Shown here: positions 9,959 to 56,544 of the stretch, piece after piece
Numbering within the stretch: the stretch's first letter is position 1
How the letters are laid out: every line of letters starts with the position of its first letter
Position numbers and translations under genes: made by a program
Origin: a virus
Taxonomy: Duplodnaviria > Caudoviricetes
DNA: 56,544 bases
Virus record (IMG/VR): IMGVR_UViG_3300027799_000001
Coordinates: 1 to 56,544 of that record
Strand: one strand, 5' to 3'
Notes under the pieces: generated by a model
Seen by the model: the letters and a program-made list of their open reading frames with translations, nothing else
What the model was told of the DNA's origin: nothing
Databases searched by the model: none

Positions 9959-9960
9959 AA

Positions 9961-35956: not shown

Positions 35957-36604
35957 TTATGCATAAGAATCAACACATTCGATTTTACAAACACAACTTA
36001 TAGTGAATATTGAGCTTGAATTATAAAAATTGTGTTCTTTGACAAAATGGTTATATGGTGTATCATTGTTTGATACTAAAAAACAAGTCATGCCTTTGTC
36101 TACACCTTCTATTACTGTTTCAGCTCTGTCTTCAACCAAAATTTTTATTCCATGATCAATACAATAATCGATTTTGTTTTTTGTAAGAACTAACTGTATT
36201 GTATTGTTATCAAGTTCGTCGGAAGGGTCAAGTGATAATTTGGTACCAATTTTATCAGTTATATTGTTTTTTATAGATTCAAATGTTGATTCTTCAGTTA
36301 CTTTTTCTCTTGCAGTTATTATATAAATCTTGAATCTTTTCATTAGATTTAACAACAGACTGTTAACGCACGGATAGTATTCTAGATCATTAATTATTTT
36401 GGGGTCGCGGATAAGTTTTTTGAATTCAGCTCTTATATGTTCGTTTATATCGGACATGTCGTATTTTTTTGATGTTGTATTACTAAAAAATACAGCATTG
36501 CTCAAATCATCACCTTTTTTTATAATGTTTTCTTTAGCCATAAGAATCAAGTTACTTTTAAATTTACATAGCACTCCGTCCATATCAAACGCTATTTTTT
36601 TCAT
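35957..36604 (-). CDS. HAD-superfamily 5'(3')-nucleotidase-like protein
   Basis: IAFDMDGVL, ITAR, K, VED. Confidence 0.85.
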   Translation of the reverse strand: MKKIAFDMDGVLCKFKSNLILMAKENIIKKGDDLSNAVFFSNTTSKKYDMSDINEHIRAEFKKLIRDPKIINDLEYYPCVNSLLLNLMKRFKIYIITAREKVTEESTFESIKNNITDKIGTKLSLDPSDELDNNTIQLVLTKNKIDYCIDHGIKILVEDRAETVIEGVDKGMTCFLVSNNDTPYNHFVKEHNFYNSSSIFTISCVCKIECVDSYA

Positions 36605-39323: not shown

Positions 39324-40445
39324 ATGAACGTTAAATATTTGAAATCAAAAATAGATATTATCGAAGTGGTTGAAAAATATACAGTTATATATAAGGTAGG
39401 GAAAGATTGCAGATGCAAATGCATTTTACACAAAGATTCAAATCCATCTATGCATATCTATGTTGATAATACTTGGTATTGCTTTGGATGTCGTCGCGGT
39501 GGAGATGTTATATCATTTGTTCAACTTGTTGAAAATATTAATTTTACAGAGGCGTGTAAACTACTTGCCCAACAATACAATATTAATATAAGTATATCTG
39601 GTGGAGACTATAAACCATATAATATAGTGTATCCATTGGCTTTAGACGGTACTTGGCATGATTATCTTAGGCGTAGACGTATATCTGATACTACAATCAA
39701 TCAGTGGGGGCTTGGCTATGACTGCAATACATCATCAATATGCATACCAATACGTAATAGTTTCGGTGCAACAATAGCCCACGCCTATAGGTATATTGGA
39801 CATAATAATACAATATCCAAGTACCGTAATGCCAATGGAAATGTGTACAATAAGAGTAGTACACTGTTTGGGTTGGATAAAGCTAAAAAATATATAGACA
39901 CATCTAATTATTGCATTATTGTAGAGGGATATTTTGATTGTATTTCTCTTCATCAAGCCGGAATACGTAATGTTGTAGCTATTTGTGGAGTAGCCTTGAC
40001 TCAACAAATGATAGACATTATTAAAAGACATACCAAGAATGTTGTATTTTGTTATGATAATGATACGGCAGGAATAAATGCAACAGTTGATAGTATAACT
40101 AAGTCTATAGGGCAAGATTTTTGTATTAAAGTTTTAGAGGTGTGTGATTATCATGATATAGACGAGCTTGTTGTTGGGAGTACACCAGAACAATTACATA
40201 AATTTTTGTGTAGTAAAATACATTGGATAGATTTTATGTACAAAAATATGCCACAGAATATTATACAATGTTTATGCAGTGTCGGCGATATATCATATAT
40301 GATTGGATGTGTTGATCGATTGTCAGAAATATCTAATGTGTCTGCAGATATAATTTTTTGTAAAATGATTAAAAAAATAAATAAAACATCACGTTTATAT
40401 AGTGATTTTGTTAAATTTATTAAAAATGGAGGTATCAATGGATAA
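39324..40445 (+). CDS. dnaG: DNA primase (DnaG, CHC2 zinc finger plus TOPRIM)
   Basis: C.LH.D..PS, CFGC..GGD, KY.N, IVEGYFD, YD.D.AG. Confidence 0.95.
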   Translation: MNVKYLKSKIDIIEVVEKYTVIYKVGKDCRCKCILHKDSNPSMHIYVDNTWYCFGCRRGGDVISFVQLVENINFTEACKLLAQQYNINISISGGDYKPYNIVYPLALDGTWHDYLRRRRISDTTINQWGLGYDCNTSSICIPIRNSFGATIAHAYRYIGHNNTISKYRNANGNVYNKSSTLFGLDKAKKYIDTSNYCIIVEGYFDCISLHQAGIRNVVAICGVALTQQMIDIIKRHTKNVVFCYDNDTAGINATVDSITKSIGQDFCIKVLEVCDYHDIDELVVGSTPEQLHKFLCSKIHWIDFMYKNMPQNIIQCLCSVGDISYMIGCVDRLSEISNVSADIIFCKMIKKINKTSRLYSDFVKFIKNGGING

Positions 40446-40712: not shown

Positions 40713-42392
40713 ATGGATAGCCAATTAATTGATAATCTTGTTAATGGTTATCATAGAGCCAAATACATAAATTTTATCAAGTATTGTTGGTTGTATACTA
40801 ATCGACCATTTTTGATAGGGTACCACACAAAAATAATATCGGATGAGATCGATTTGGCGCTTAAGAGATACAAAGACGGTCAATCATCTTATTTGATGTT
40901 TTTGTGTTGTTTTAGGTCGGGGAAAACCGAGTTGACATCTCGGTTTTTGCCTGTCAGATTTTTGGCTCAAAATCCAGATGATGAGGTTTTAATAGTATCT
41001 CACAGACAAGATAAAGCTAATCAATTTAGTCGGTATAGCCAAATGATTGCATCTTCTAAAAATTTTAAAAAATTGTATCCAGATTTAGCCATTGGAAAAG
41101 CTTCTGTGCAGGAATGGGGTTTTGATAATCATTTGGGGTCTTGCCAGTATATAGGTATAGATACTGGATCGGCAGGTATGGGGGCTAATCTATTAATACT
41201 TGATGACTATTATGGTGGTATAGAAGATGCGCTATCACAAACTATAGAAGAAAAAAGATGGAACGCATTTAGTTCAAATTTGCTGACCAGGCTTGGCAGT
41301 CCGCATATAGTAGCGATATGTGTTACACCCTGGACTACGTCTGATATAGTTGCACGAATACAACAAGAAATGATTAAAACCAAAGACTATCCGCAATATA
41401 AAATTTTACGATTTCCCGGAATAGATGAGTCATATCCGTCAGGTTATCTTTTCCCTGAAAAATACCCTGAGTCATGGTATATTGCTCAAAAAGCTACCCT
41501 TAGTAAATATGAGTTTCACTCTTTGATGCAGGCACAACCATTACCACGTGACGCGGGTGTATTCAAAACTTCTAAAATTAAATACTATGATGATATAAGT
41601 GATGTTATTGATGACCCAGAGTCAATTATATGGATTAGGGCATGGGATATAGCTGCATCAGTTAAAGAATTAATTAAGAGTGATCCAGACTGGACTGTCG
41701 GCGTCAAAATGTTTGTCAAAAAATATGAAAGCAATGTTGATGGTTACTATGTACACACGGTGTATATAGATGATATAATAAGGGTTCGTTTTGAGGCACC
41801 TGAGCGCGATAGGCTTATACTGAGTACGGCTTTGGCAGAAAGTAATACCATAGTAGGGGTAGAGTCATTTGGGGTTCAGAAGGACGTCTACAGCAACGTA
41901 CGCAAGCTTCTACAGGGCAAACGTATAATACGCAAGTTCCCTGATGGAAAAGATCCTCGTGGAGATTTGTTATCAAGATCGTTTGCTTTACAAACTGCGT
42001 GTGAAAGCGGTAACCTTTATGTCAAACGTGCCGATTGGAACGAGGCTCTAATCAATGAGTTGGCGTGTTTTCCAGGCTCAAAACATGATGATATTATAGC
42101 TGCAATGGTCGTAGGATTTTACGTTGGACAACGTAGCGGAACCGGTGTAGGTGTGATGGTTGACACACACAGTATTGAGGTAGAGCGTGAAAATAAATGG
42201 GGCGTGATATTAGGGCAGATAATCGATGGATATGAGCCTACGATAAGTCAGACGGATTATATACGCTTTGTAAGGTATAGGCTTGTTGAGCATGCTGGTA
42301 AGGAGGAGAATAGTGCGGTGGTAGAGTTGATGAATTCTATCATCAAAAAGTTAGATATAGAATACGATTATGAATCGTTTAAAGTGGTGTAA
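40713..42392 (+). CDS. terL: Terminase large subunit
   Basis: RSGKT Walker A, LILDD Walker B, AWD.A, D.T.G, FP...HDD nuclease motifs. Confidence 0.93.
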   Translation: MDSQLIDNLVNGYHRAKYINFIKYCWLYTNRPFLIGYHTKIISDEIDLALKRYKDGQSSYLMFLCCFRSGKTELTSRFLPVRFLAQNPDDEVLIVSHRQDKANQFSRYSQMIASSKNFKKLYPDLAIGKASVQEWGFDNHLGSCQYIGIDTGSAGMGANLLILDDYYGGIEDALSQTIEEKRWNAFSSNLLTRLGSPHIVAICVTPWTTSDIVARIQQEMIKTKDYPQYKILRFPGIDESYPSGYLFPEKYPESWYIAQKATLSKYEFHSLMQAQPLPRDAGVFKTSKIKYYDDISDVIDDPESIIWIRAWDIAASVKELIKSDPDWTVGVKMFVKKYESNVDGYYVHTVYIDDIIRVRFEAPERDRLILSTALAESNTIVGVESFGVQKDVYSNVRKLLQGKRIIRKFPDGKDPRGDLLSRSFALQTACESGNLYVKRADWNEALINELACFPGSKHDDIIAAMVVGFYVGQRSGTGVGVMVDTHSIEVERENKWGVILGQIIDGYEPTISQTDYIRFVRYRLVEHAGKEENSAVVELMNSIIKKLDIEYDYESFKVV

Positions 42393-44870: not shown

Positions 44871-45093
44871 TAGATAGTACATTGAAAATGGTGTACGTTA
44901 CACATCAACCTGTTACACTAACAATATAACAACATGATAACAAATATTCGAACAGTTGTTATTTGACCGAGACGTTAAAAAGTATAGAAGTGTAGCGTCC
45001 ACCACTAATTTATGTTATTGTATTAACAAATCGACCCTCTTAGGCCCCCGTCAAACTCTTTTTGGCGGGGTTGTGGCAAGTAGTTAAAAGATT

Positions 45094-45328
45094 AAACAAA
45101 GGAGTAGAAAAATGAGAGCAATAGTATTAGATGTATCTGTAGGTACGGAAGAGCATGCAGGTGGTATTATGTGTAGTTTCGATGAGGACTGCGCAAGATA
45201 CATAGGGCAGACTATAGAAGTCCAGCATATGTTTACTGATTGTTTACGATGGTATACCTTGAAAGGAAAATCTACAATTAAGCCTGAAGTAATTTTCCAT
45301 AAAAATTGGTTAGAATTTGTACAATAAA
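45094..45328 (+). repeat. 235-nt inverted repeat, arm 1
   Basis: Reverse complement of 56146-56380; no mismatch seen by eye. Confidence 0.92.
45112..45327 (+). CDS. 71-aa hypothetical protein, copy 1
   Basis: Identical protein at 56147-56362. Confidence 0.8.
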   Translation: MRAIVLDVSVGTEEHAGGIMCSFDEDCARYIGQTIEVQHMFTDCLRWYTLKGKSTIKPEVIFHKNWLEFVQ

Positions 45329-45383
45329 AGTATGTTTATAGTGTATGAGGTGGTCAATAGATTTGTAACAAAGGAGTAGAAAA

Positions 45384-46166
45384 ATGTCGAGAAAATTCAG
45401 AGTGAACGAGAAAGTAAGGAAGTCACCGCCTGAATTCACAAAAGAAAAAAAATGTATAGGTAAAGTTTTAGAATTTGACGACAATGCCTTTTGCAATGGT
45501 TGTTATAAGATTAGGCCCAAAGGTTCTTTTGATTTACTCATGTTTCATGGGTCTTGGCTTGATGATGTGCATGAGGACACTCCTGTAGACGATTTACGTA
45601 CTATTTTAGAGAAAGCAGAAAAGACAAATATAGAAAAATTAGATGAAACACCTATAATGTTTCAGAAATCTTGGCTTGATGAGGTGTATGAGGACACCCT
45701 TGTAGACGATTTACACACTATTTTGGGGAAAACAGAAGAACCAAAGTCAGACTATCACAAAGCAAAATATGACAAAGGAAAATATCAACCAAGATACATT
45801 CCGGTGATAGCTGAAGAGTTGGCGGCCAGGGTGTTTGAGTTTGGCGGTTGTAAAAACTATGGTTTCTTCTCTTTCCAAGATGTACCGGAAGCTATGGACA
45901 GATACATGGATGCACTGAAGCGTCATTATGATGTTCTCATGCTGCATAAACAACAAAATGGAAATTATGATATCAATGAGTCAGAATCACAAATACCAGA
46001 GATAGCTTTTATTCTTTCAAACGCTATGATGCTGGTTCATGTATATGTTAGGGAGGCGGCAAAAGCCAAAGGTATGACAATGAGAGAGTATGTTGATAAG
46101 GAAATTAATCCGGGCATGTTTACTGCTTTTGATGCGGTAAAAGAAAAATATAATACGAAAAGTTGA
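45384..46166 (+). CDS. Fusion: small N-terminal domain plus DUF5664-like dATP/dGTP diphosphohydrolase
   Basis: KYD.GK....IP, A.V.EFG..KNYG, RY.DA..RH, ES; N-terminus paralogous to 55858-56109; internal ~39-aa duplication. Confidence 0.75.
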   Translation: MSRKFRVNEKVRKSPPEFTKEKKCIGKVLEFDDNAFCNGCYKIRPKGSFDLLMFHGSWLDDVHEDTPVDDLRTILEKAEKTNIEKLDETPIMFQKSWLDEVYEDTLVDDLHTILGKTEEPKSDYHKAKYDKGKYQPRYIPVIAEELAARVFEFGGCKNYGFFSFQDVPEAMDRYMDALKRHYDVLMLHKQQNGNYDINESESQIPEIAFILSNAMMLVHVYVREAAKAKGMTMREYVDKEINPGMFTAFDAVKEKYNTKS

Positions 46167-46231
46167 AATTTTTTATACTTTTTTGCACATTTTGTATTAT
46201 ATTTGTAAATAACTTTTAATAAGGAGTAAAT

Positions 46232-46408
46232 ATGATACTTAAAATCATAGTGTATAGTATGTGTGTAGCCTTATTTACAGGTTTGCATATTGCAGCAATA
46301 GTTAAATTTAAACGCTGGTTTAGCTGGCAAAAATATTTACAAATTATAGGCTTAGGTCTTATAGTATTTGCAGTGTCACTATTCACTCTATGTGCTATTC
46401 TTGGATAA
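46232..46408 (+). CDS. 58-aa two-TM protein
   Basis: AAGGAG RBS; MILKIIVYSMCVALFTGLH...SWQKYLQIIGLGLIV. Confidence 0.7.
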   Translation: MILKIIVYSMCVALFTGLHIAAIVKFKRWFSWQKYLQIIGLGLIVFAVSLFTLCAILG

Positions 46409-46417
46409 GGAGTAATT

Positions 46418-46585
46418 ATGGAACTTAAATTCCTTATATCTGTTTTGTGTTTGGCCCTAACTGTGTTTCATACTGTTATTATGTATAACAAACCACTTCA
46501 GATAAATAAACACGTACAAGATTTAAGATGGAGTCTTACTATCTTTTTGCTTTCATTATTAGTATACATTAACGTATCCCAATAA
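46418..46585 (+). CDS. 55-aa two-TM protein
   Basis: AAGGAG RBS; MELKFLISVLCLALTVFH... Confidence 0.7.
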   Translation: MELKFLISVLCLALTVFHTVIMYNKPLQINKHVQDLRWSLTIFLLSLLVYINVSQ

Positions 46586-46591
46586 AATGAG

Positions 46592-46777
46592 TTGTTATGG
46601 AACTCAAAAACATATTTCTTAATATGTGGCATTTTATCTCTTTTAAATCTTGTATTATGCATTGATATACTTTTTGATTTTGATTTTAAAAATTGGAAAG
46701 ATTATTTGCAAAGGATAAGTTTATACTTTGTTATATCAATATTGTTTATAGTCCTACAACATACCAATTTTCAATAA
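46592..46777 (+). CDS. Two-TM protein, possibly frameshifted at the 5' end
   Basis: ATG GAA CTC AAA (MELK) at 46597 is one A out of frame with TYFLICG...NWKDYLQ. Confidence 0.55.
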   Translation: MLWNSKTYFLICGILSLLNLVLCIDILFDFDFKNWKDYLQRISLYFVISILFIVLQHTNFQ

Positions 46778-46788
46778 AGGATAAAAAA

Positions 46789-47337
46789 ATGTGTGAATTT
46801 TTTAGTTTTGTCTCATATAACAATGTTTTTTATTATTTTAATGCCAAGGACAGGGAAAAAAGGTTAGTTCCCAACCCAGATGACCATGAACGAATTTGTA
46901 AGTATTTTAAGATTAATGAATATAAGTGTAATAAATACTCATATATTAGAGGGAAACTTAAAACATATGATAAACAATATAAAGGTGACCACCCCAAAAA
47001 ATTTATTAAAAAGTTAAAACCAAAATTTAGCGAATTATGTTTGGCTGCTGTACAATTTTATGGTTCAAGCATTGGTGGAGTTCCAAACAAATACAGAACT
47101 CCAGAGCTTTGTATGTCATCAGTACAACAAGACGGAAGTGCAGTTTATTATTTGACTTCTAAACAAAGGACTAGATGTGTTTGTTTAGCAGCAATACAGC
47201 AAGACAGTTGGGCTATTGATTACTTAAATGATGAGCAAAGAACGCCACAGGTTTGTGAAGCGGCCGTTAGACAAGATGCATCAGCGGCCGATTTTTTAAC
47301 CAAAGAACAAAGAAAATTTGTAGAGTATTTATTATAA
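46789..47337 (+). CDS. DUF4116-like repeat protein, copy A (4 modules, divergent)
   Basis: Start MCEFFSFVSY at 46789 after AAGGA; 24-aa modules. Confidence 0.85.
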   Translation: MCEFFSFVSYNNVFYYFNAKDREKRLVPNPDDHERICKYFKINEYKCNKYSYIRGKLKTYDKQYKGDHPKKFIKKLKPKFSELCLAAVQFYGSSIGGVPNKYRTPELCMSSVQQDGSAVYYLTSKQRTRCVCLAAIQQDSWAIDYLNDEQRTPQVCEAAVRQDASAADFLTKEQRKFVEYLL

Positions 47338-47352
47338 GAAAAGGAGTAAAAC

Positions 47353-47877
47353 ATGTGCCTTTTTTTTAGCTTTGTATCTTATGACGGCAATTTTTACTAT
47401 ATCAATGCAGAAGATAGAAAAAAGAAGTTACTTAAGAATCCTGACAGTCACACTCAGATATGTACTTTTTTCAAACTTCGGGAGGACATGTGTAATAAAT
47501 ACGAGTATACGAAAGAGAAAGGTTTGGTAATAGATTCCGAAGTTTATGTAGGTGATGATGTTGAAGGATTTATAAAGAAAACACTTCCAAAATTAGTAAA
47601 AATAGCTATTGTGACAGTGGTGAATTACGGTAAAGGCATTACCTTTGTTCCAGAAGAAGCACGTACATCAAAGTTTTGTTTAGCTGCAGTGAACCAAAAT
47701 GGTTCTGCTGTTGTTCATTTAACTGAAAAACAAAGAACTTCAAAGATTTGCCTTGAGGCTGTTAAGCAAAATGGGAACGCAATTTGGCACTTAACTGAAA
47801 GCCAAAAAACGCCAAAGGTTTGCCTTGCTGCAGTACTACAGAATAAAGATGCTTATAATTATCTGACTGATTCTTAG
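47353..47877 (+). CDS. DUF4116-like repeat protein, copy B (4 modules; premature TAG in the C-cap)
   Basis: TAG at 47875 aligns with CAG in copy I; KKRVDLALENKKQ continues in frame after it. Confidence 0.85.
   Translation: MCLFFSFVSYDGNFYYINAEDRKKKLLKNPDSHTQICTFFKLREDMCNKYEYTKEKGLVIDSEVYVGDDVEGFIKKTLPKLVKIAIVTVVNYGKGITFVPEEARTSKFCLAAVNQNGSAVVHLTEKQRTSKICLEAVKQNGNAIWHLTESQKTPKVCLAAVLQNKDAYNYLTDS
47706..47868 (+). repeat. 163-nt inverted repeat shared by copies B and I
   Basis: Reverse complement of 56418-56453 joined to 1-127. Confidence 0.88.
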
Positions 47878-47930
47878 AAAAAAAGAGTAGATTTAGCATT
47901 AGAAAATAAAAAACAGTAGAAAGGTAGAAT

Positions 47931-48737
47931 ATGTGCTGCTTTTTCGGTTTTGTCTCGTATGACAATGTTTTCTATTACATCAACGCAGAAGATAGGAAAA
48001 AGAAGTTACTTAAAAATCCTGACAGTCATACTCAGATCTGTTCCTTTTTCAATCTGCCTGAAGACAGATGCAATAAATACGAGTTTTCTGCAGATTTTGG
48101 CATTACAGCAGATGCCTTAGAATATAAAGATGACGACCCTGAAGGATTTATAAAAAAAATGTTGCCAAAATTAGTAGAAATGGCTATTGCGACAATTAAA
48201 ACTTATGGAGAAGGCATTGAGTTTTTATCAGACGAGGAACGCACTCAAGAAATATGTTTGGCTTTGGTTAAAAAGAATTGTGATGCAATAAGACACTTAA
48301 CTGATAAGCAGCGCACACCTGAGGTTTGTATCGCTGCAGTTAAGAAAGACGGCAACGCCATTGTCTATCTAACGAATAAACAGCGAACGCCAATGGTTTG
48401 CCTGGCCGCTGTTCAAAAAAATGGTGATGCTATTAGGTTCCTAACTGCTAAACAACGCACACCAAAAGTATGTAAGGAAGCAGTGAAGAAAGCTGGTTGG
48501 ACTATTACTTATTTAACAAATGAACAAAAGACTCTAGGACTTTGTATGTTATCTGTGGAAAAGAGTGGTACTAATATCGAGTATGTTCCTAATGAGCTAA
48601 GGACACCAAAGCTTTGCTTGACGGCAGTGTTAAAAGACAAGGCGGCTTTTAAATTTCTCAATTATATTCAAAAAGAAGAAGTGGCTATGGCTCTGCTAAA
48701 GCGAGTAAAAGCATGCAAAAAATCCGGAACAAAGTAA
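47931..48737 (+). CDS. DUF4116-like repeat protein, copy C (7 modules)
   Basis: MCCFFGFVSYD N-domain plus RTPxVCxAAVxxxGxAIxxLT repeats. Confidence 0.85.
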   Translation: MCCFFGFVSYDNVFYYINAEDRKKKLLKNPDSHTQICSFFNLPEDRCNKYEFSADFGITADALEYKDDDPEGFIKKMLPKLVEMAIATIKTYGEGIEFLSDEERTQEICLALVKKNCDAIRHLTDKQRTPEVCIAAVKKDGNAIVYLTNKQRTPMVCLAAVQKNGDAIRFLTAKQRTPKVCKEAVKKAGWTITYLTNEQKTLGLCMLSVEKSGTNIEYVPNELRTPKLCLTAVLKDKAAFKFLNYIQKEEVAMALLKRVKACKKSGTK

Positions 48738-48761
48738 AAATCTGAAATAAAGGAGTAAAAA

Positions 48762-49712
48762 ATGGGTGGCTTTTTTAGTTTTGTATCGCACAAAAATACG
48801 TTTTATTATATTGACGTAAATGGGCGTAAAAACAAGATACTTGAAGATCCTGACAACCATACACAGATATGCGCATATTTCAAACTTCCTGAGAAGCAAT
48901 GTAATAAGTATGAGTATGTAAAATATGAGTTTTCTTCAGAAGATCCTAACGAGGAAGACGTTAGAGCTGAAAAGATAGTGTACGAAGGCGACGATCCATT
49001 TGATTTTATGGAAAAAATACGTCCTATTTTTACAGAATTGTGCATAACAACAGTTATTAATTATGGTAATGGAATCGAGTTCTTAAAGGGCTATCAACGG
49101 ACACCTGAAATTTGTTTAGCTTCTATTAAAAATAAGCCAGAGTCTATAGAATATTTGACTGATGAACAAAAAACACCACAGGTTTGTTTGGCAGCAGCGA
49201 AGAAAAATTGGGAAACTCTTGAGCACATGAATAACAAGCAGAGAACACCTGAAGTTTGTTTAGCGGCTCTTTTGCAAAATATCGAAGCAGCCAGAATATT
49301 GACGGCTGAACAGATAACTCCAGAGATTTTACTTGCTACTGCTCAAAAAAATGGAGAAATAATAAAAATTTTATGGTCAAGTCACTTCAGAACACCTGAA
49401 GTTTGTCTTGCTGCTATTAAACAAAATTGGATGCTTATTAGTAGTTTGGCTGACGACCAAATAACATTGGATATTTGTATTGAAGCGGTATCACAAAACA
49501 AAGAAGCTTATGCTTATGTGCCTTTATCTATGAGAAGAAGACTTCATTCAAAGGTATCAAAAAAATTAAAGAAATTTTTTGAACAAAAAGATGAAGAAAG
49601 AATACGTGTAATAGAAGCTCGTGAAAAAGAAGATAAACGCAGGTTAGCTGCTCGGGAAAAGAAAAATGAAATTAAGAAGGCTCTTCGGTTTTTGTTAAAG
49701 CAAATAGATTAG
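48762..49712 (+). CDS. DUF4116-like repeat protein, copy D (7 modules plus charged coiled-coil tail)
   Basis: MGGFFSFVS N-domain; K/R/E-rich C-terminus. Confidence 0.85.
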   Translation: MGGFFSFVSHKNTFYYIDVNGRKNKILEDPDNHTQICAYFKLPEKQCNKYEYVKYEFSSEDPNEEDVRAEKIVYEGDDPFDFMEKIRPIFTELCITTVINYGNGIEFLKGYQRTPEICLASIKNKPESIEYLTDEQKTPQVCLAAAKKNWETLEHMNNKQRTPEVCLAALLQNIEAARILTAEQITPEILLATAQKNGEIIKILWSSHFRTPEVCLAAIKQNWMLISSLADDQITLDICIEAVSQNKEAYAYVPLSMRRRLHSKVSKKLKKFFEQKDEERIRVIEAREKEDKRRLAAREKKNEIKKALRFLLKQID

Positions 49713-49747
49713 TCTTCAATCTTTTTTGTAAGAATAGGATACAAAAA

Positions 49748-49951
49748 ATGCAACTTAAAGATCCTGAATTCAAGAAAATGATTGGAGACCGCATGCTAGA
49801 CAATGGCGGTTTTACCTACGTCTACGGCGCAGTAAAAGACGGCTCTTCTGTCAGACCTGCTACTGCCTCTACTAAAAGGCGCAAAAGAAACGATAAAAGA
49901 TCAGTGAAACAAGCTGTTTTGAAAAGAATTTTCAGAGAAGAATTAGAATAG
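49748..49951 (+). CDS. Basic hypothetical protein
   Basis: AGGA RBS; K/R-rich C-terminal half. Confidence 0.55.
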   Translation: MQLKDPEFKKMIGDRMLDNGGFTYVYGAVKDGSSVRPATASTKRRKRNDKRSVKQAVLKRIFREELE

Positions 49952-50002
49952 TTGTATGTATAAAATATCAAAAAAAGAACAGGTTTAATCAAAGGTTTTT
50001 TT

Positions 50003-50590
50003 ATGAAATATAAAATTGCTATTGATTTAGATGGAGTTAGTTGGAACTTTAGAACACACCCTTCTTCTTATGCTTGGTTTAAATTTGGATATAGTTTAGC
50101 TACGTTTCCTAAAAAATTCAGATACGATATGTCAGATTTTCCAAAGAATGTTCAAGAAGAAGCTAAAAAGTATTTGGTTGATGAAAAAAGAATGTCAGAT
50201 GTGATACCTGTTACGTGTCTTGTAAGTGTTGTAAATGACTTACAAGACAATTACGAAGTAATATTTTTAACAACAAGAGATCCTAAATTGAAATGCACTT
50301 CTGAAAAACTTAAGGAAATATTTCAAAAATATTCTTGCAACGTTCCTGAGTTAGTTTACAGTACAGACAAAATAAAATTCTGCGAAGAGCATAGCGAAGT
50401 AACAGCTATAGTAGAAGACTGCGCCGAGACTCTCATGAAGGTAACTTTAAATAAAAAGATTAAACATATAAGATGTTTTTTAGTTATTAATGAACATACC
50501 AAAGCCTATAACGGTTTCATAGAAAACCATAATATTCCTAGAATAACAAAAATGAAATGTTTGTGTGATATTTTGACAAACATTTATTAA
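50003..50590 (+). CDS. HAD-superfamily nucleotidase-like protein, paralog of 35957-36604
   Basis: IAIDLDGV, YDMSD, LTTR, K, IVED.AET. Confidence 0.8.
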   Translation: MKYKIAIDLDGVSWNFRTHPSSYAWFKFGYSLATFPKKFRYDMSDFPKNVQEEAKKYLVDEKRMSDVIPVTCLVSVVNDLQDNYEVIFLTTRDPKLKCTSEKLKEIFQKYSCNVPELVYSTDKIKFCEEHSEVTAIVEDCAETLMKVTLNKKIKHIRCFLVINEHTKAYNGFIENHNIPRITKMKCLCDILTNIY

Positions 50591-50675
50591 TAATTATTTA
50601 AAATAACACATCTGATACCATTTTAAGCTTTTATAGTATATTAATACAAACAGTATTTAAATAAATGGAGCAATT

Positions 50676-51059
50676 ATGAAAAAATACATACTTTTAGAAA
50701 ATGATACAAAAAACTTCGAATGTCGTATATTACATAGAATAAAAGCTGTACGTGATTTTGGTCACATAAGAGATGGTGACATTGGAGGTTATTTAGAATC
50801 TGAAAGAAATCTTAGTCATAAAGGTAATTGTTGGGTTTACGATGAAGCTATGGTTTTTGAAGATGCTACTGTTACAGACAAATCAATGATATTTGATAAA
50901 GCTATTATTTATGGCACGGTAAAAATTTGTGGAAAATCTATTGTTTGTGGCAACACAATGATTAGTGGTAATGTAAAAATATACAACAATTCAGTTGTGT
51001 CTGAGTTTGTACACATGTTAGAAGCAAAAACAAATCAAAATATACACAAAGGAGAGTAA
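50676..51059 (+). CDS. Phage protein with hexapeptide-like repeats
   Basis: RIKA.RDFG....GD.GG..E.E.NLS..GNCWV...A.V. Confidence 0.8.
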   Translation: MKKYILLENDTKNFECRILHRIKAVRDFGHIRDGDIGGYLESERNLSHKGNCWVYDEAMVFEDATVTDKSMIFDKAIIYGTVKICGKSIVCGNTMISGNVKIYNNSVVSEFVHMLEAKTNQNIHKGE

Positions 51060-51062
51060 ATA

Positions 51063-51215
51063 ATGAATAATTTTTTAATCAAAAACTTATGTGCTTTGTT
51101 GGTTGTGGTGTTATTTTTAGGACAAGCCGTAGTTTCGATGTTTCAGCGTAATGTGCCTTTGGCTGTATATTTTGCTTTAGCTGCTGCCATTAATTTCGCT
51201 GTTTTGTTTGTTTGA
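51063..51215 (+). CDS. 50-aa two-TM protein
   Basis: AGGAG RBS; MNNFLIKNLCALLVVVLFLGQAVV... Confidence 0.6.
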   Translation: MNNFLIKNLCALLVVVLFLGQAVVSMFQRNVPLAVYFALAAAINFAVLFV

Positions 51216-51229
51216 TAAAGGAGTAAAAA

Positions 51230-52093
51230 ATGTGTAACTTTTTTAGCTTTGTTTCGTATGACGGTCATTTCTATTACATCAACGCTGAAGACCGCAAAAA
51301 AGAAATACTTGAGAATCCTGACAGTCACACTCAGATATGTTCATTCTTCAATCTGCCTGAAGATAGGTGTAATAAGTACGAGTATACGAAAGAGAAAGGT
51401 TTGGTAATAGATTCCAAAGTTTATGTAGGTGATGATGTTGAAGGATTTATGGACAAAATATATTCAAAATTAGTAGAATTGGCTATAATAACAGCAGAAA
51501 ATTATGGGGATGGAATGGAATTCATTCCGGATAAACTTCGTACATCAGAGCTTTGTTTGGCAGTGGTTAAGAAAAATGGAAATGCGATCAAATATTTATC
51601 TTTAGAGCAGAGAACTCCAAATGTTTGTTTAGCGGCGGTGAAGCAGGATGGTTATGCTGTTTGTTGGCTAACAGAGGATCAAAGAACGCCTCAAGTTTGT
51701 TTGGCAGCAGTAATGCAAAATGGTAGTGCTATTGGGTATTTAACTTTCAAACAAAAAACTCCTGAAATTTGTTTGGCTGCTGTTAAGCAAAATGGTGGCG
51801 CTATCATGGTTTTATCTGAGGAGCATGCCACACCAGAAGTTTGTAGGGCTGCTATTAACAACAATCCTTATTCCGTGGCAAGCATACCCGACAAATTGCG
51901 TACTCAAGATCTTTGTTTGATGGCTGTTAAAAAAGATGGGACTGTTGTTAAATATTTATTGGATGAAGAGAGAACGCTGGATATTTGTTTAGCGGCAGTG
52001 AGGCAAAATAAAAATACTCGTAAATATTTGACTGAAGATCAGAAAAAAGCAGTAGATTTAGCATTAGAAAATAAAAATAAAACAAAAGGATAG
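51230..52093 (+). CDS. DUF4116-like repeat protein, copy E (8 modules)
   Basis: MCNFFSFVSYD N-domain; C-cap DQKKAVDLAL. Confidence 0.88.
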   Translation: MCNFFSFVSYDGHFYYINAEDRKKEILENPDSHTQICSFFNLPEDRCNKYEYTKEKGLVIDSKVYVGDDVEGFMDKIYSKLVELAIITAENYGDGMEFIPDKLRTSELCLAVVKKNGNAIKYLSLEQRTPNVCLAAVKQDGYAVCWLTEDQRTPQVCLAAVMQNGSAIGYLTFKQKTPEICLAAVKQNGGAIMVLSEEHATPEVCRAAINNNPYSVASIPDKLRTQDLCLMAVKKDGTVVKYLLDEERTLDICLAAVRQNKNTRKYLTEDQKKAVDLALENKNKTKG

Positions 52094-52098
52094 AAAAA

Positions 52099-52260
52099 AT
52101 GTGTCATTTTTTTAGCTTTGTATCTTATGACAATGTTTTCTATTACATCAATGCCGAAGATAGAAAAAAGAAATTACTTAAGAATCCTGACAGTCATACT
52201 CAGATATGTTCCTTTTTCAATCTGCCTTTGAATATTACAATTTTCAGCAGCAAACAATAA
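52099..52260 (+). pseudogene. Copy F: truncated N-terminal domain joined out of frame to an ankyrin gene
   Basis: MCHFFSFVSYDNVFYYINAEDRKKKLLKNPDSHTQICSFFNLP, then unrelated LNITIFSSKQ*. Confidence 0.85.
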
Positions 52261-52267
52261 CATAAAC

Positions 52268-52699
52268 ATGCTTAAACTATCAATAAAAGAAGGTGGAAAT
52301 GTGAATGCTAATGAAGGTTTTGCATTGCGCCGAGCAATAGAATTAAATAATGTTAAAATGGTCGCTCTGTTATTAAAAAATGGAGCAGACCCCAATGTAT
52401 ATAGACATTCATCAATACGACTTGCAGTACGACATAATAATACAAAAATTGCTAAGTTATTAATAGATGCTGGTGCTGATATTAATGAAGAAAATGGTTT
52501 TTCCTTGCTATTTGCCGCTATAAATGGTAATGTGGAAATGGTTAAAATTTTAATATCGCCAAATAATAAGGGCAAAAATATAAAAAAGAAAGTTTTACGT
52601 TCAACTATTAAAAGTATTCATGGGTATTCTTTGATACCAAATAATGCTAATAAATACACAGAAATTATTAATGTTTTAACAAATAAATTGAAAGGATAA
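52268..52699 (+). CDS. Ankyrin-repeat protein (5' truncated)
   Basis: AL..A...NN...V.LLL..GAD.N repeats; the first repeat (ILQFSAANNNIN) starts upstream of the ATG, from 52232. Confidence 0.85.
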   Translation: MLKLSIKEGGNVNANEGFALRRAIELNNVKMVALLLKNGADPNVYRHSSIRLAVRHNNTKIAKLLIDAGADINEENGFSLLFAAINGNVEMVKILISPNNKGKNIKKKVLRSTIKSIHGYSLIPNNANKYTEIINVLTNKLKG

Positions 52700-52727
52700 T
52701 ATGAAACACTATGTAAAACACAACATA

Positions 52728-53240
52728 TCAAACAATATAGTTTGGTATGTTGAATTTGTTTAAAATCTCTACCTTTTCAGCACTTTGTTTTTTTCGCATT
52801 GTTTTATACCATTCGCAAGGTATTTTACACAAAACAAAACCGCCTTTCTTGCGACTATATCTTTTCTGTTGTGGGATACATGAGCAATCGCTTAGTCCGA
52901 ATAGAAGTATTTCCAGTCTATCACCTGTATTCGGGTGTTTTAAATTGGCAAGATAATAATTGAAACTCTTTTTTACATGTGTGTTTTGTTTGATATAATG
53001 GCAAAAATAAAATCTAACGCTTCTGAGCCATGTTATCAATACTCTTTTTGTTATATCCTTATAAATTATCAAACCCTTGTGCACAACGCTGTATCTCCTA
53101 CAACCGCAATACACACTGCCTGACAAAACTATTTTGTACAAATGCTCTTTGCATCTATGATGGACTTTATCGATCCTATTTATCCCGCTATCCATTCCAG
53201 TACGTAATTCATACCACATATGGGATTTTATACACCTCAA
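52728..53240 (-). CDS. Hypothetical basic protein
   Basis: 170-aa ORF co-oriented with DUF1064; start uncertain. Confidence 0.45.
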   Translation of the reverse strand: MRCIKSHMWYELRTGMDSGINRIDKVHHRCKEHLYKIVLSGSVYCGCRRYSVVHKGLIIYKDITKRVLITWLRSVRFYFCHYIKQNTHVKKSFNYYLANLKHPNTGDRLEILLFGLSDCSCIPQQKRYSRKKGGFVLCKIPCEWYKTMRKKQSAEKVEILNKFNIPNYIV

Positions 53241-53589
53241 TAATATTTATTTTATGTACAGCATACATTAGTTTCTTTTTGAGCTTATACTCAGGTGTAA
53301 GTAACTTTTGGGATGCTTTAACATCATATACTATACTCTGTCCGTCATTATATGTTACAACAAAATCAGTTACATAATCACATATGCGTACATTATTTAC
53401 TTCGATTGGATATCTTTTGTGTACTTCAATCGATTCTATATTACCTCTATTTTTAAGCATTTCAAGAAATAAATAAAATTTATATTCCTTTTTTGAGTCG
53501 AATGTATATCCACCATATACAATACGCTTATGCATGTATCTACCAGTTTTTGACTTGAATTTTTTGTAACAAACTGGATAACTCGGCAT
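53209..53589 (-). CDS. DUF1064-family nuclease
   Basis: G..FDSKKE, Y..DF, DVK, TPEY.LKKKL; GGAG RBS before ATG at 53589. Confidence 0.85.
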   Translation of the reverse strand: MPSYPVCYKKFKSKTGRYMHKRIVYGGYTFDSKKEYKFYLFLEMLKNRGNIESIEVHKRYPIEVNNVRICDYVTDFVVTYNDGQSIVYDVKASQKLLTPEYKLKKKLMYAVHKINIIEVYKIPYVV

Positions 53590-53696
53590 TAAAACTCCAT
53601 TAAGTACAACATTGTATTGTATATAATATAATACAATAATAATAAATTGTATCAAAAAAATATTATTTTTTTAAAAAAATAATTGTTCAACTAAAC

Positions 53697-53927
53697 TCAT
53701 CTCAATATTTGTTTGTAGGCTTCGTAAATCTGGCGGGAAAAAAGCTCATCTGTTTTTTTCATCTCTTCAATTATGCTGTATATTGTATCATTTGGATTAA
53801 TTACACACTCATAACTATATTGGTCACATGCTTCTTCATTGGTTTCTTTCTTAATCAAATACTTAGTATTCAATTTGCCGCCTTTGTAAAAGTTTGTTGA
53901 TTGCATAGTTATTAAATAATATATCAA
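53697..53927 (-). CDS. Hypothetical protein
   Basis: Co-oriented ORF; start uncertain. Confidence 0.4.
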   Translation of the reverse strand: MIYYLITMQSTNFYKGGKLNTKYLIKKETNEEACDQYSYECVINPNDTIYSIIEEMKKTDELFSRQIYEAYKQILR

Positions 53928-53935
53928 AAGTGTAA

Positions 53936-54106
53936 TTACAACATGTTTCTGTCCTTTAATAATATATTAATTCGGTCATAATAGTCCTCTTTTTTTTGTC
54001 TTTCTATTTCCAACAATACGTCTACCGCCTCATAAATATTATATCCAACGCGACACAGTTTAATCAATTCATCAGAATAATCACTTGAATCACTTGTATT
54101 TATCAA
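53936..54106 (-). CDS. 56-aa protein, tandem paralog 2
   Basis: TTG start; DYSDELIKLCRVGYNI. Confidence 0.6.
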   Translation of the reverse strand: MINTSDSSDYSDELIKLCRVGYNIYEAVDVLLEIERQKKEDYYDRINILLKDRNML

Positions 54107-54222
54107 TTAATTATCCATTTCGTTAAAATGTTGATTGTTTTGATATATTTATTAAAATCGAATTCGATTGTAAATCATTGTTTGTATTTTTTACTCAATA
54201 ATACTGAATCAACAAAATATAA

Positions 54223-54399
54223 TCATAACGCATCTTTATCTTTTATAAATTTGTCAATTTCATTTTTGTGCTCCTCTTTCTTTTTTTTGATTTCTGATAT
54301 TATGTTTAATGACTCATTAATATTGTACCCTGCTTTAAACAGTTTGATTAATTCGTCTGAATAATCTTCTAAATCATCTAAATAACATGTGTTAAACAT
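54223..54399 (-). CDS. 58-aa protein, tandem paralog 1
   Basis: ATG start; DYSDELIKLFKAGYNI. Confidence 0.65.
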   Translation of the reverse strand: MFNTCYLDDLEDYSDELIKLFKAGYNINESLNIISEIKKKKEEHKNEIDKFIKDKDAL

Positions 54400-54474
54400 T
54401 TAATTATCCATTTCTTCAGAATGTTAATGATTTGAATATGTTTATTACAATAGAATTCGATTTTAAATTATTGT

Positions 54475-55326
54475 TTAATTTTTACTTTCCAATGCTAAAT
54501 CTACTGCTTTTTTCTGATCTTGAGTCAAAAAATTATAAGCATTTTTATTCTGCAGTACCGCGGCCAAGCAAATCTGAGGTTCTCTTTGCTCATCAGTTAA
54601 ATAATAAATAGCAGTACCATTTTGCTTAACCGCAGCAAAACATATCTCCGGAGTTTTTTGCCTATAAGATAAATGTCTAACTGCTCTACCGTTTTGCATT
54701 ACTGCTGCTAAACAAATATCTGGAGTTTTATCTTTATCAAGTAAAAAATTAATAACATCTCCATGTTTTTTAACAGCCATCAAACAAAGATCTTGAGTAC
54801 GCAATTTGTCATGCATATAGGCTACAGAACAAGGGTTATTGTTAATAGCAGCAATACAAACTTCCAGTGTTTGCTGTTTTTCAGATAAATATTCTATAGC
54901 CTTACCATTTTGGTTCACTGCTGCCAAGCAAATCTGAGATGTCTTATGTTCATCATTTAACCAACGAACAGCATGTCCTTTTTTACTAACTACTGATAAA
55001 CATAATTCATGTGTACGAAGTTTATCTGGAATGAATTCAATTCCATTCCCATAATTTTCTGCTGTTATTATAGCCAATTCTACTAATTTTAAATATATTT
55101 TGTCCATAAATCCTTCAACATCATCACCTACATAAACTTTAGAATCTATTACCAAACCTTTCTCTTTCGTATACTCATACTTATTACATCTATCTTCAGG
55201 AAGCTTGAAAAAAGCACAAATTTGAGTGTGACTATCTGGATCCTCAAGTATTTTGTTTTTTCTATCTTCGGCATTGATGTAATAGAATGTATTATCATAA
55301 GATACAAAGCTAAAAAAATGACACAT
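54475..55326 (-). CDS. DUF4116-like repeat protein, copy G (8 modules)
   Basis: MCHFFSFVSYD N-domain; C-cap DQKKAVDLALESKN. Confidence 0.88.
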   Translation of the reverse strand: MCHFFSFVSYDNTFYYINAEDRKNKILEDPDSHTQICAFFKLPEDRCNKYEYTKEKGLVIDSKVYVGDDVEGFMDKIYLKLVELAIITAENYGNGIEFIPDKLRTHELCLSVVSKKGHAVRWLNDEHKTSQICLAAVNQNGKAIEYLSEKQQTLEVCIAAINNNPCSVAYMHDKLRTQDLCLMAVKKHGDVINFLLDKDKTPDICLAAVMQNGRAVRHLSYRQKTPEICFAAVKQNGTAIYYLTDEQREPQICLAAVLQNKNAYNFLTQDQKKAVDLALESKN

Positions 55327-55344
55327 TTTTTCTATTCCTTTTGT

Positions 55345-55836
55345 TTAATTTTTACTTTCCAATACCAAATCTACTGCTTTTTTCTGATCTTGAGTCAAAT
55401 GATAATAAGAATTTTTGTTTTGCATTACAGCCTTTAAACATACCTCAGGTGACCGCTGTTCGTCAGTAAAATACTTTATAGCATATCCATATTTTTCGAC
55501 TATCGCCAAGCAAATTTCAGGTGTGAGTTGAAAACCTTTTAAAAACTCATTTCCTTTACCATAATTCATAATTGTCACTATGCATAGTTCTTCAAATTTC
55601 GGCATTAATTTTTCAATGAAGCCTTCTGGATCATCGCCTTTATACTCAAAAGCATCAGTCATAATTCCATCATATTTATAATACTCATATTTATTACATC
55701 GGTCTTCAGGCAGATTGAAGAATGAACAGATCTGAGTGTGACTGTCAGGATTTTTAAGTAACTTCTTTTTGCGATCTTCGGCATTGATATAGTAAAAATG
55801 GCCGTCATACGAAACAAAGCTAAAAAAATGGCACAT
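55345..55836 (-). CDS. DUF4116-like repeat protein, copy H (3 modules)
   Basis: Same N-domain and C-cap. Confidence 0.88.
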   Translation of the reverse strand: MCHFFSFVSYDGHFYYINAEDRKKKLLKNPDSHTQICSFFNLPEDRCNKYEYYKYDGIMTDAFEYKGDDPEGFIEKLMPKFEELCIVTIMNYGKGNEFLKGFQLTPEICLAIVEKYGYAIKYFTDEQRSPEVCLKAVMQNKNSYYHLTQDQKKAVDLVLESKN

Positions 55837-55857
55837 GTTTTACTCCTTTTGTTCCTA

Positions 55858-56109
55858 TTATTTTAGGTCATCTATTTCATTGACAACAGGGTATACATCA
55901 TCTGCTGGAGTGTCATCTGGGACAGAATCAAGCCAATATTTTTGAAATACAAAAAAGTAGGGATTGTATTTAGTTCCAATAACATAACAACCATTGCGAA
56001 TATATTTTTCATCAAAGGCTAAAACTTTACCAACTAATTTTTTTTCTCTCGAGAAATACCGTAAAGTACAATCCAATACATTCTCATTTACTCTAAATTT
56101 TTTCAGCAT
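55858..56109 (-). CDS. Stand-alone paralog of the N-terminal domain of 45384-46166
   Basis: KFRVNE.V...EKK..GKVL.FD....NGCY...WLD.V..DTP.DD shared. Confidence 0.75.
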   Translation of the reverse strand: MLKKFRVNENVLDCTLRYFSREKKLVGKVLAFDEKYIRNGCYVIGTKYNPYFFVFQKYWLDSVPDDTPADDVYPVVNEIDDLK

Positions 56110-56145
56110 TTTTTCACTCTTTTGTTAAAAATTTATTAACAATTA

Positions 56146-56380
56146 TTTATTGTACAAATTCTAACCAATTTTTATGGAAAATTACTTCAGGCTTAATTGT
56201 AGATTTTCCTTTCAAGGTATACCATCGTAAACAATCAGTAAACATATGCTGGACTTCTATAGTCTGCCCTATGTATCTTGCGCAGTCCTCATCGAAACTA
56301 CACATAATACCACCTGCATGCTCTTCCGTACCTACAGATACATCTAATACTATTGCTCTCATTTTTCTACTCCTTTGTTT
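56146..56380 (-). repeat. 235-nt inverted repeat, arm 2
   Basis: Reverse complement of 45094-45328. Confidence 0.92.
56147..56362 (-). CDS. 71-aa hypothetical protein, copy 2
   Basis: Identical to 45112-45327. Confidence 0.8.
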   Translation of the reverse strand: MRAIVLDVSVGTEEHAGGIMCSFDEDCARYIGQTIEVQHMFTDCLRWYTLKGKSTIKPEVIFHKNWLEFVQ

Positions 56381-56544
56381 TGCTTATATCTAAATCTACT
56401 CTTTTTTTCTGAGAATAAGTCAGATAATTATAAGCATCTTTATTCTGTAGTACTGCAGCAAGGCAAACCTTTGGCGTTTTTTGGCTTTCAGTTAAGTGCC
56501 AAATTGCGTTCCCATTTTGCTTAACAGCCTCAAGGCAAATCTTT
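56367..56544 (-). CDS. DUF4116-like repeat protein, copy I, 3' part
   Basis: ...VLQNKDAYNYLTYSQKKRVDLDISKTKE*, in frame with 1-624 across the overlap. Confidence 0.8.
   Translation of the reverse strand, partial: KICLEAVKQNGNAIWHLTESQKTPKVCLAAVLQNKDAYNYLTYSQKKRVDLDISKTKE
56454..56544. repeat. Terminal direct repeat, copy 2
   Basis: Identical to 1-91. Confidence 0.95.

Follow-up and report, generated by a model that had tools for sequence, protein, structure and literature searches.

One conserved head on many repeat tails: a nine-copy phage gene family and its possible part in host takeover

The window analysed here is IMG/VR record IMGVR_UViG_3300027799_000001 over its full length of 56,544 bp, a complete tailed-phage genome, and the subject is a family of ten of its genes, A to J. 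Nine of them open with the same head of about 80 amino acids (MCxFFSF…DSH…NKYEY), and the tenth, J, consists of repeats only. The repeats that make up the tails are ordinary members of a known family, DUF4116 (PF13475), and it is the head family that is new. Library and literature searches (main texts, without supplements) found no account of the head, of the rule that one head goes with many tails, or of a nine-copy recombining expansion in a phage. I propose that the genes form a repertoire of target-specific proteins, active in host takeover or against host defence, that share a common and possibly catalytic head. I put the probability of this proposal at about 0.45.

The ten genes sum to 6237 bp, 11% of a genome that is 56,453 bp long when an exact 91-bp overlap between the ends of the record (56454-56544 repeats 1-91) is counted once. 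An initial annotation of the sequence had claimed ten such genes occupying about 6 kb, and both their places and their extent hold. Its unit counts are also exact when the tails are cut every 24 aa: 4, 4, 7, 7, 8, 8, 3 and 6 for A to E and G to I, cap units included, and none for F.

Copies A to F are on the plus strand. Copy A (46789-47337; PF13475 E 5.1e-12) joins 4 units to the most divergent head among those that keep the cysteine at position 2 (MCEFF..DDH..NKYSY). Copy B (47353-47877; E 6.8e-14), also with a head and 4 units, is without the usual SQKK..VDL C-terminal tail. Copy C (47931-48737; E 2.9e-22) has a head and 7 units, and so has D (48762-49712; E 6.1e-14), in which one unit is of 25 aa, the head starts with MGG, without an N-terminal cysteine, and reads DNH, the linker is 9 aa longer, and a charged C-terminal helix follows the units. 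Copy E (51230-52093; E 2.4e-38), a head with 8 units, is the one that was used for modelling. Copy F (52099-52260; no PF13475 match) is a stump of 53 aa with no units, a 5' remnant in which head codons 1-43 are followed by unrelated sequence to the stop. The remaining genes are on the minus strand: G (54475-55326; E 1.2e-35), a head with 8 units; H (55345-55836; E 4.3e-8), a head with 3 units and the shortest complete copy; and I, which crosses the ends of the record. The head and first units of I run from 624 down to 1 (open reading frame and six-frame PF13475 scan), and its last units and C-cap occupy 56367-56453 (56367-56544 including the overlap) in the open reading frame across the record ends; joined over the overlap, I is a protein of 236 aa with 6 units. 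Gene J (1555-1878, or 1555-1776 from an internal ATG; 22.2 bits with PF13475) has no head and 2 units, one internal and one C-cap, and its C-terminus resembles that of copy A.

The conserved N-terminal domain claimed for A to I is indeed shared by all nine, with the reservation that D has lost the N-terminal cysteine. The set of conserved head residues (Cys2, Ser6, Arg22, Asp31-Ser32-His33 and Asn48-Lys49-x-Glu51) is complete in B, C, E, G, H and I. Copy A departs from it with DDH and NKYS, D with the absence of Cys2 and the presence of DNH, and F by ending at codon 43.

The tails have a strict grammar. In full copies the order is head, linker helix, N-cap unit, internal units and C-cap unit, and units of period 24 together with cap units are present in every one, which is the modular build first described for them. 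The N-cap unit has the consensus xELAIxTxxNYGxGxEFxxxxxRT, the internal unit PxxCLAAVxQNGxAIxxLTxxQRT, and the C-cap unit …LQNKxAYxxLTxDQKKAVDLxLExKN. A hidden Markov model (HMM) search with PF13475 bears out the suggested likeness to DUF4116: A, B, C, D, E, G and H match at 33-130 bits (E 4e-8 to 2e-38), above the gathering score of 24.9 bits, while the score of gene J is under that cut-off and copy I is matched in a six-frame scan of the genome. In that scan DUF4116 is matched 33 times in this genome, against no match in any of 14 control genomes.

Variation within the units is concentrated. Entropy, computed over 31 internal units without the caps and without D5 (25 aa), is highest at position 16 (3.65 bits, 15 residue types) and position 13 (3.58 bits, 14 types). 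Cys4 is invariant, and the conserved framework consists of positions 3, 5-8, 12, 14, 15 and 18, of which 14, 15 and 18 are the conserved hydrophobic ones. The initial annotation had singled out the residue after NG, which is position 13, and the pair before L, which is 16 and 17; the first two are as variable as claimed, and position 17 is only moderately so (2.23 bits, mostly Y, H, F or W).

An AlphaFold2 (AF2) model of copy E, built on an alignment of 110 rows, has a mean predicted local distance difference test score (pLDDT) of 82.7 and exceeds 90 over residues 110-210. In it each 24-aa unit is a pair of helices, at unit positions 1-10 and 12-17, and the tails are predicted to be two-helix alpha-solenoids. 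Because the second helix spans positions 12-17, positions 13, 16 and 17 are spaced i, i+3 and i+4 along it, and the periodicity of a helix would then bring the variable residues together in a single exposed stripe along the solenoid. As for the early suggestion that they share one face, the model places 13 and 16 on the second helix, and the exposed stripe is a prediction from that periodicity. Foldseek matches to the tail are all weak (best E 0.37), most of them helical-repeat proteins. A contact-based model of the DUF4116 family, in the part of PMC8078820 available, is also an alpha-solenoid. None of the papers that a full-text search for the term found deals with the function of DUF4116.

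The substitutions in the heads tell of long and careful maintenance. Over head codons 1-52 of B, C, E, G, H and I, the proportion of differences at synonymous sites (pS) is about 0.5-1.0 and at non-synonymous sites (pN) 0.03-0.10. The ratio of non-synonymous to synonymous change (dN/dS) is 0.02-0.12 where it can be computed, and synonymous sites are at or near saturation. Synonymous saturation combined with so low a dN/dS means that the copies are old and that each head has been maintained by selection.

Then there is the mosaic structure of what follows the head. Despite their saturated heads, E, G and I hardly differ in codons 53-105 (pS 0-0.15), and for G and I the likeness extends to codon 149. 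The last 68 codons of B (107-174) are 97% identical in DNA to codons 155-222 of I, and within them lies an exact inverted repeat of 163 bp common to the two copies, found by sequence comparison (47706-47868, with its partner at 56418-56453 plus 1-127 on the opposite strand). Whole modules are shared as well: E6-E7 are the counterparts of G4-G5, and G2 is that of I2. From the shared modules and mosaic tracts it follows that modules pass between copies by recombination.

In these recently exchanged tracts dN/dS is 0.82 for G and I over codons 53-149 (30 non-synonymous to 9 synonymous changes), 1.39 for B and I (5 to 1), 0.41-0.44 for E with G and with I, and 0.35 for E6-7 with G4-5. The tail values are far above those of the head, yet there is no clean excess over 1. 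Excess non-synonymous change, which the initial annotation had proposed to look for, does not emerge for whole tails (0.4-1.4). The signal that does exist is specific to a site: position 13 differs in 7 of 9 independent close pairs of units, for which randomisation gives P 0.0013 for position 13 itself and 0.033 for any position. Hypermutation by a diversity-generating retroelement (DGR) was considered as a source of such variation and rejected. PF00078 has no match in the whole record, while a control found it in 3 of 14 genomes, and a genome with no reverse transcriptase excludes a DGR.

The ends of the record and their 91-bp overlap fall within the 163-bp repeat of B and I, and for that reason the circular join, and the question which C-terminal tail is B's and which is I's, rest on the assembler. 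Recombination across the repeat would invert a segment of about 8.6 kb and swap the C-terminal tails of the two copies. In sequencing run X1, 0.96 of the phage words are present, 33 of 38 placed contigs are at least 99% alike, all 8 of the pieces listed are without differences, and contig breaks fall in the family repeats. Most bins have a depth of about 86-97x, which falls off at the far end. The contigs and depth of this run therefore support a single genome that carries all the family copies. One cross-mapping contig accounts both for the five 'other letters' in G and for an opposite-strand joint that links G to B. No polymorphism was seen at the variable unit positions in X1, as judged from Logan contigs, which lose rare variants. 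In a second run, X2, 0.09 of the words are present at depth 2-7, with exact pieces of 151-261 nt from non-family genes (45000-56544), and there are low-support joints and loose ends within family genes. This hints at a related strain with another arrangement of the family, the support being too weak for a claim.

The head, as modelled by AF2 in copy E, has strands at residues 5-10 and 13-15, helices at 19-23 and 33-39, and strands at 48-53 and 57-62, and a long helix (70-92) runs from it into the N-cap unit. Modelled alone, it reaches a pLDDT of 89.9 and a predicted template-modelling score (pTM) of 0.81. A prediction of a head homodimer scored 0.03, which counts neither way.

When the head was searched against a word index of 5.8 billion proteins, only this phage's own copies came back. 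The search with an N-domain profile alone, recommended by the initial annotation, was carried out exhaustively with HMMER and E's head against 1.84 billion cluster representatives (50% identity); it found 112 proteins at E <= 1e-3, a family otherwise unnamed. The match begins at residue 1 in nearly all of them. E and 109 of these matches make up the alignment (n=110) to which the counts below refer. Three were left out: P0010, a 1,254-aa repeat protein matched over query residues 21-72 only, P0036 (926 aa) and P0089.

The last of these (542 aa) has two complete head-plus-tail units in one open frame. The first head starts MSNFFSF after a probable mis-called start, and the second is CNFFSF directly after …YRDR, with neither a Met nor a stop between. 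Either gene calling has merged two genes in P0089, one of them with an unusual start, or the protein needs cleavage before the cysteine.

Many residues of the head are near-invariant. Ser6 is present in all 110 sequences, Asp31 and His33 in 109, Met1 and Cys2 in 108, Ser32 in 107, and Arg22, Asp45 and Asn48 in 106; Glu51 follows with 105, Phe4 with 104, Ile36 with 103, Phe5 with 102, Lys49 with 101 and Asp61 with 100. One of the exceptions at Cys2 carries Ser instead. The head had been described as containing Cys and His, which is true of Cys2 and His33; the other two cysteines of this phage's heads are kept in only 58 and 54 of the 110.

Searches for a relative with a name gave little. Pfam at E <= 10 had no match for the heads of E and B and one weak, unrelated match for that of H (Csd3_N2, E 0.24). 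NCBIfam had no head match, and PADLOC-DB 2.0 had none for E, for E's head or for 7 other head-bearing proteins. The best hit of a profile search of PDB sequences with the head had E 0.27, and Foldseek found nothing in PDB at E <= 0.001 with the head model. The best Z in the VIA-wide search was 4.9 (RNase PH-like and gelsolin-like domains), under the level deemed meaningful, and the ESM Atlas gave no usable head match. A fold search of BFVD returned a single protein, A0A6J5R2L7, uncharacterised and from an uncultured phage (E 0.012, prob 1.0).

Two enzyme folds were considered by name. The topology of the head and the spacing of its motifs suggested a possible likeness to GIY-YIG nucleases; the idea was dropped as unsupported, there being no Pfam match at E <= 10 and no such chain among the Foldseek and VIA-wide matches shown. 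A cysteine directly after the initiator Met, as in 108 of the 110 heads, is also found in N-terminal-nucleophile (Ntn) hydrolases and SRAP proteins. For these too there was no Pfam match and no such chain among the Foldseek or VIA-wide matches, and an 80-aa b-b-a-a-b-b-a head is presumably far smaller than either fold.

Across the head-bearing proteins, what changes is the tail. Pfam recognises DUF4116 in 23 of the 110, LRV in 4, Imm5_like in 4 and HEAT in 2, with VRR_NUC, pentapeptide, DUF6745 and others as single cases. The C-terminal part reaches 40 aa or more in 95 proteins, and clustering of these parts puts 32 in a class with SVxxSV short repeats and a conserved end domain, 25 with DUF4116, 9 with a small non-repeat domain, 5 with another 24-aa repeat (DAYxYC), 4 with LRV/HEAT, 4 with an Imm5-like tail and 3 with an LRR-like (leucine-rich repeat) one, leaving 13 singletons. 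The clustering and the Pfam tally together make the head a constant module on exchangeable, mostly repeat, tails of at least seven classes. The notion of one head coupled to exchangeable binders, put forward from this genome, fits the family as a whole.

A pattern scan of IMG/VR found 81 relatives, of which 80 loci were kept, with G+C contents of 0.25-0.55. Counted by a head HMM within +/-10 kb, the head occurs once in 75 loci, twice in 4 and three times in 1, against nine times in this phage. By a crude motif count, 54 of the 86 head-bearing open reading frames in these loci have SVxxSV tails and 2 have DUF4116-like ones. Among the loci found, only this phage has the nine-copy DUF4116-tailed expansion. 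In L019 (8444-10717), L058, L060 and L062, paralogues that bear the head and an SVxxSV tail lie in tandem or close together, and these differ mainly in the number of 4-aa repeats and in their W/R/G/N/D pattern. Since the SVxxSV paralogues also differ, tail variation between paralogues extends beyond the DUF4116 class.

Elsewhere the head gene sits in a replication and recombination module. When neighbours within 5 kb were clustered by BLAST and named by Pfam, the 80 loci had a single-stranded DNA-binding protein (SSB) in 22 cases, a DnaB_2/DnaD-type replication organiser in 19, a Vsr-like endonuclease in 15, RecT in 13 and an N6/N4 DNA methylase in 11, with Lar-like proteins appearing weakly. 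Cellular genomes gave 8 matches to the motif pattern in 185,579 species genomes, all on contigs, phage-size or tiny, of metagenome-assembled genomes (MAGs). Three tiny contigs (1.0-1.6 kb) of one MAG, L081, L087 and L088, each have a match to the head motif, as would be expected if another genome had several copies that break assembly. For cultured phages, 50,697 GenBank records were searched by tblastn with two members of the family, E's head and P0015, and neither gave a match. To judge by where its sequence turns up, the head seems confined to phages, and all those known to have it are uncultured.

I propose that the tails have different target proteins, which they bind by the second helix of each unit, on its exposed face (positions 13, 16 and 17). 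The targets would most likely be host proteins, plausibly defence effectors, whose neutralisation the initial annotation had suggested, and the head would do the same thing in every case to, or at, the protein held by the tail. If that action is catalysis, it would depend on the free N-terminal cysteine left by removal of Met, assisted by Asp31-Ser32-His33, Arg22, Asn48-Lys49 and Glu51. Shuffling of modules by recombination, together with substitutions at the exposed positions, would maintain the diversity of the repertoire. Features typical of nucleophile sites include a free N-terminal 1,2-aminothiol, Ser in place of Cys and a DSH motif, and I lean, on the strength of the conserved residues, towards a head whose action is catalytic rather than purely structural. 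A stronger version would make the head a new, phage-restricted enzyme domain whose N-terminal cysteine, with His33 and Asp31, modifies or cleaves the protein captured by the tail, so that a recombining repertoire of nine members confronts many host (defence) proteins. That much I consider rather unlikely; if it were so, the superfamily would be a counterpart in prokaryotic viruses of substrate adaptors such as F-box/PRANC.

Several observations weigh against the proposal of a target-specific repertoire with a common head. Pfam, NCBIfam, PADLOC, PDB sequences and fold searches give no homology link from the head to any function. Copy D is intact though it has lost Cys2, which fits a non-catalytic head or a decoy copy. 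The dN/dS of exchanged tracts, 0.4-1.4 on small counts, fits relaxed constraint as well as it does diversifying selection. Positions 13 and 16 may be just the least constrained surface positions of any DUF4116 repeat, and in Pseudoalteromonas phage vB_PtuP_Slicky01 (OQ508958.1) the three DUF4116 paralogues differ from one another at these unit positions too. Finally, the genome is laid out as two gene arms, one per strand, that diverge from about 20.3 kb and meet at about 52.7 kb, and the family genes are distal in both, in one arm downstream of the tail genes. The initial annotation took the library of binders to be expressed early. Early expression is not indicated by genes at the far ends of both arms, promoter-like sites are not in excess (75 versus 65.4 +/- 6.6 in shuffles), and none of the runs listed as containing the phage was of RNA.

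The chief alternative keeps the binding tails and demotes the head. The proteins would be stoichiometric inhibitors, a 'polyimmunity' array whose tails each block a different toxin or nuclease domain, for instance that of a polymorphic toxin or of an effector in a defence system, and the head would serve for docking, localisation or stability. Imm5_like tails on 4 of the 110 head-bearing proteins, and HEAT/LRV, LRR-like and pentapeptide tails on others, speak for this, as does the open frame of copy D in the absence of Cys2. Tails also exist without a head, in gene J and in the three Slicky01 proteins. Zhang et al. 2012 (PMC3482391), in the part available, describe Imm5 as mostly alpha and immunity genes in arrays without an adjacent toxin gene. 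But at least ten near-invariant polar residues in 80 aa, and an obligatory start at residue 1, go beyond what is usually asked of a passive module, and no copy in this phage matches an Imm family. I regard such an array as possible but doubtful. Less probable still is that the phage carries these genes for defence or superinfection exclusion, with the head as effector and the tail as sensor of some protein from a competing phage or mobile element. Many bacterial immune sensors are built in this way, a small conserved effector-like domain being attached to a variable repeat part, and several copies with different tails in one genome would broaden recognition. PADLOC, however, matches neither the head nor the full proteins, there is no NTPase or other switch domain, and the head is almost absent from cellular genomes, the 8 pattern matches being all on MAG contigs. 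Other phages, moreover, place the head by methylase and Lar-like genes in their replication and recombination modules, where counter-defence is the more usual trade.

The repertoire could also be aimed further afield, at a eukaryotic cell that houses the bacterial host, in the manner of the phage-borne ankyrin genes of symbionts. There is an ankyrin-repeat gene in the same block, whose best NCBIfam rows, far under their cut-offs, are Legionella Dot/Icm Ank effectors, and DUF4116 is also met with in association with eukaryotes, one instance being a label in the figure legend of a preprint on viral gene transfer in Symbiodiniaceae. Against this, no secretion signal was identified in the proteins, the head family is found in phages of G+C 0.25-0.55, the sequencing runs that contain the phage are all of freshwater sediment, and the head's neighbours elsewhere are genes of DNA metabolism. 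I think it very improbable, and I would say much the same of the notion that the head is a packaging or ejection signal by which the proteins travel in the virion and enter the cell along with the DNA. A constant N-terminus with variable cargo is the logic of capsid targeting, as in the internal proteins of T4, and G to J are on the same strand as the tail genes. But the neighbours of the gene in the 80 other loci serve replication and recombination and are not structural genes, and a folded domain of 80 aa, rich in invariant polar residues, does not resemble a short targeting peptide. As for the copies being decaying duplicates or selfish repeats without function, F is a stump and B is without the usual C-terminal tail, but eight long frames are intact and head dN/dS is 0.02-0.12 over saturated synonymous sites. 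Decay is already contradicted by that pattern of selection and deserves next to no credence.

A small repertoire of DUF4116 genes in a phage is not unique, since Slicky01 has three neighbouring paralogues (7691-10003). These consist of DUF4116 only, with a short common N-terminus (MITLEHVK…) and no MCxFFSF head; in the phage described here, nine copies bear the head and the tails include distinct cap units at their N- and C-terminal ends. The Slicky01 genes lie a few genes upstream of an annotated ribose-phosphate pyrophosphokinase and a nicotinate phosphoribosyltransferase.

Polyimmunity loci, as described in the available part of PMC3482391, likewise consist of tandem paralogous genes for binders, mostly alpha-helical or repeat proteins, with no adjacent toxin gene. 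Unlike them, the present family has a conserved head, matches no Imm and lies in a phage rather than a bacterial chromosome. The ankyrin/PRANC-F-box families of poxviruses and the bro family of baculoviruses also combine a small conserved domain with variable modules, in many paralogues that are often near genome ends, and their presumed role is host manipulation. They have no relation to this family in sequence or fold, and here the constant domain is N-terminal and must start at residue 1. The presumed hosts are not known to have ubiquitin-type machinery. With DGRs and with the variable lymphocyte receptors (VLRs) of lampreys the family has in common that variation is focused at a few positions of a fixed scaffold. 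The comparison with lamprey VLRs made at the outset survives as an analogy only: there is no LRR, assembly mechanism, reverse transcriptase or template repeat, and the diversity is germline-encoded in separate genes, with substitution and recombination as its sources. By analogy, then, the logic would be that of viral adaptor-plus-repeat families and of polyimmunity loci, and the family is a member of neither.

If the proposed repertoire is real, the MCxFFSF head marks a widespread and unnamed class of modular phage proteins (about 110 clusters, 81 viral contigs) that pairs one conserved action with interchangeable binder tails and opens a source of mechanisms for host takeover and anti-defence. 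DUF4116 would become a natural binder scaffold with its recognition positions already marked, and would gain its first functional handle. The phage described here would be the best point of entry, as its nine paralogues allow tails to be compared on a constant head.

The record is classed in IMG/VR as having direct terminal repeats, and its G+C content is about 0.27-0.36 in 2-kb windows. Genes were identified by PHROG matches: on the plus strand the DnaB-like helicase (20315-21418), portal (27179-29350), major head protein (32252-33556), primase (39324-40445) and large terminase (40713-42392), and on the minus strand the tape-measure protein (7901-9958). RNase H, a repair exonuclease and a head-tail adaptor were identified in the same way. 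A hairpin scan found a terminator-like hairpin with a 13-bp stem where the gene arms converge (52721-52752, plus strand). No Rfam family and no tRNA was found in the phage sequence scanned. Megablast of the 10.5-kb family block found no close relative among the 50,697 GenBank phages, matches to the large terminase in a search for relatives were all at or below 28% identity, and a pattern scan of IMG/VR gave no relative of the major head protein.

The ankyrin-repeat gene (52268-52699, plus strand; Ank_2 E 1.3e-14) begins 7 nt after the stop of F and is a second kind of repeat scaffold in the family block. It matches the PADLOC candidate model PDC-M72A (E 5e-13), and the Legionella Ank effector models of NCBIfam only weakly. 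The possibility that F and this gene are one frameshifted gene was rejected: the head stops at codon 43, before its last two strands, and because it breaks off there a fusion would have no foldable head.

Other small families may be present. The N-terminal 70 aa or so of a MazG-like protein (phrog_801; 45384-46166, plus strand) resemble by eye an 83-aa open reading frame beside H (55858-56109, minus strand), with the common pattern MxxKFRVNExV…GKVLxFD…WLD…DTPxDD, and a 71-aa open reading frame (56147-56362, minus strand) ends in a similar NWLEF motif; the three may form a second small paralogous family with members on both arms. Between J and the tail-fibre gene, three open reading frames on the minus strand (785-1054, 1132-1533 and 2164-2439) have in common a C-terminal motif, …KTFxExVLxxxxxY…RVVRxxxxFxxxFAKNLIxxYYDxxxNYYKNNSS, and make up another small paralogous family; the one member tested had no PHROG match. 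Lastly, phrog_420, a PHROG with no assigned function, is matched both by 50003-50590 (plus strand), inside the block from A to F, and by 35957-36604 (minus strand).

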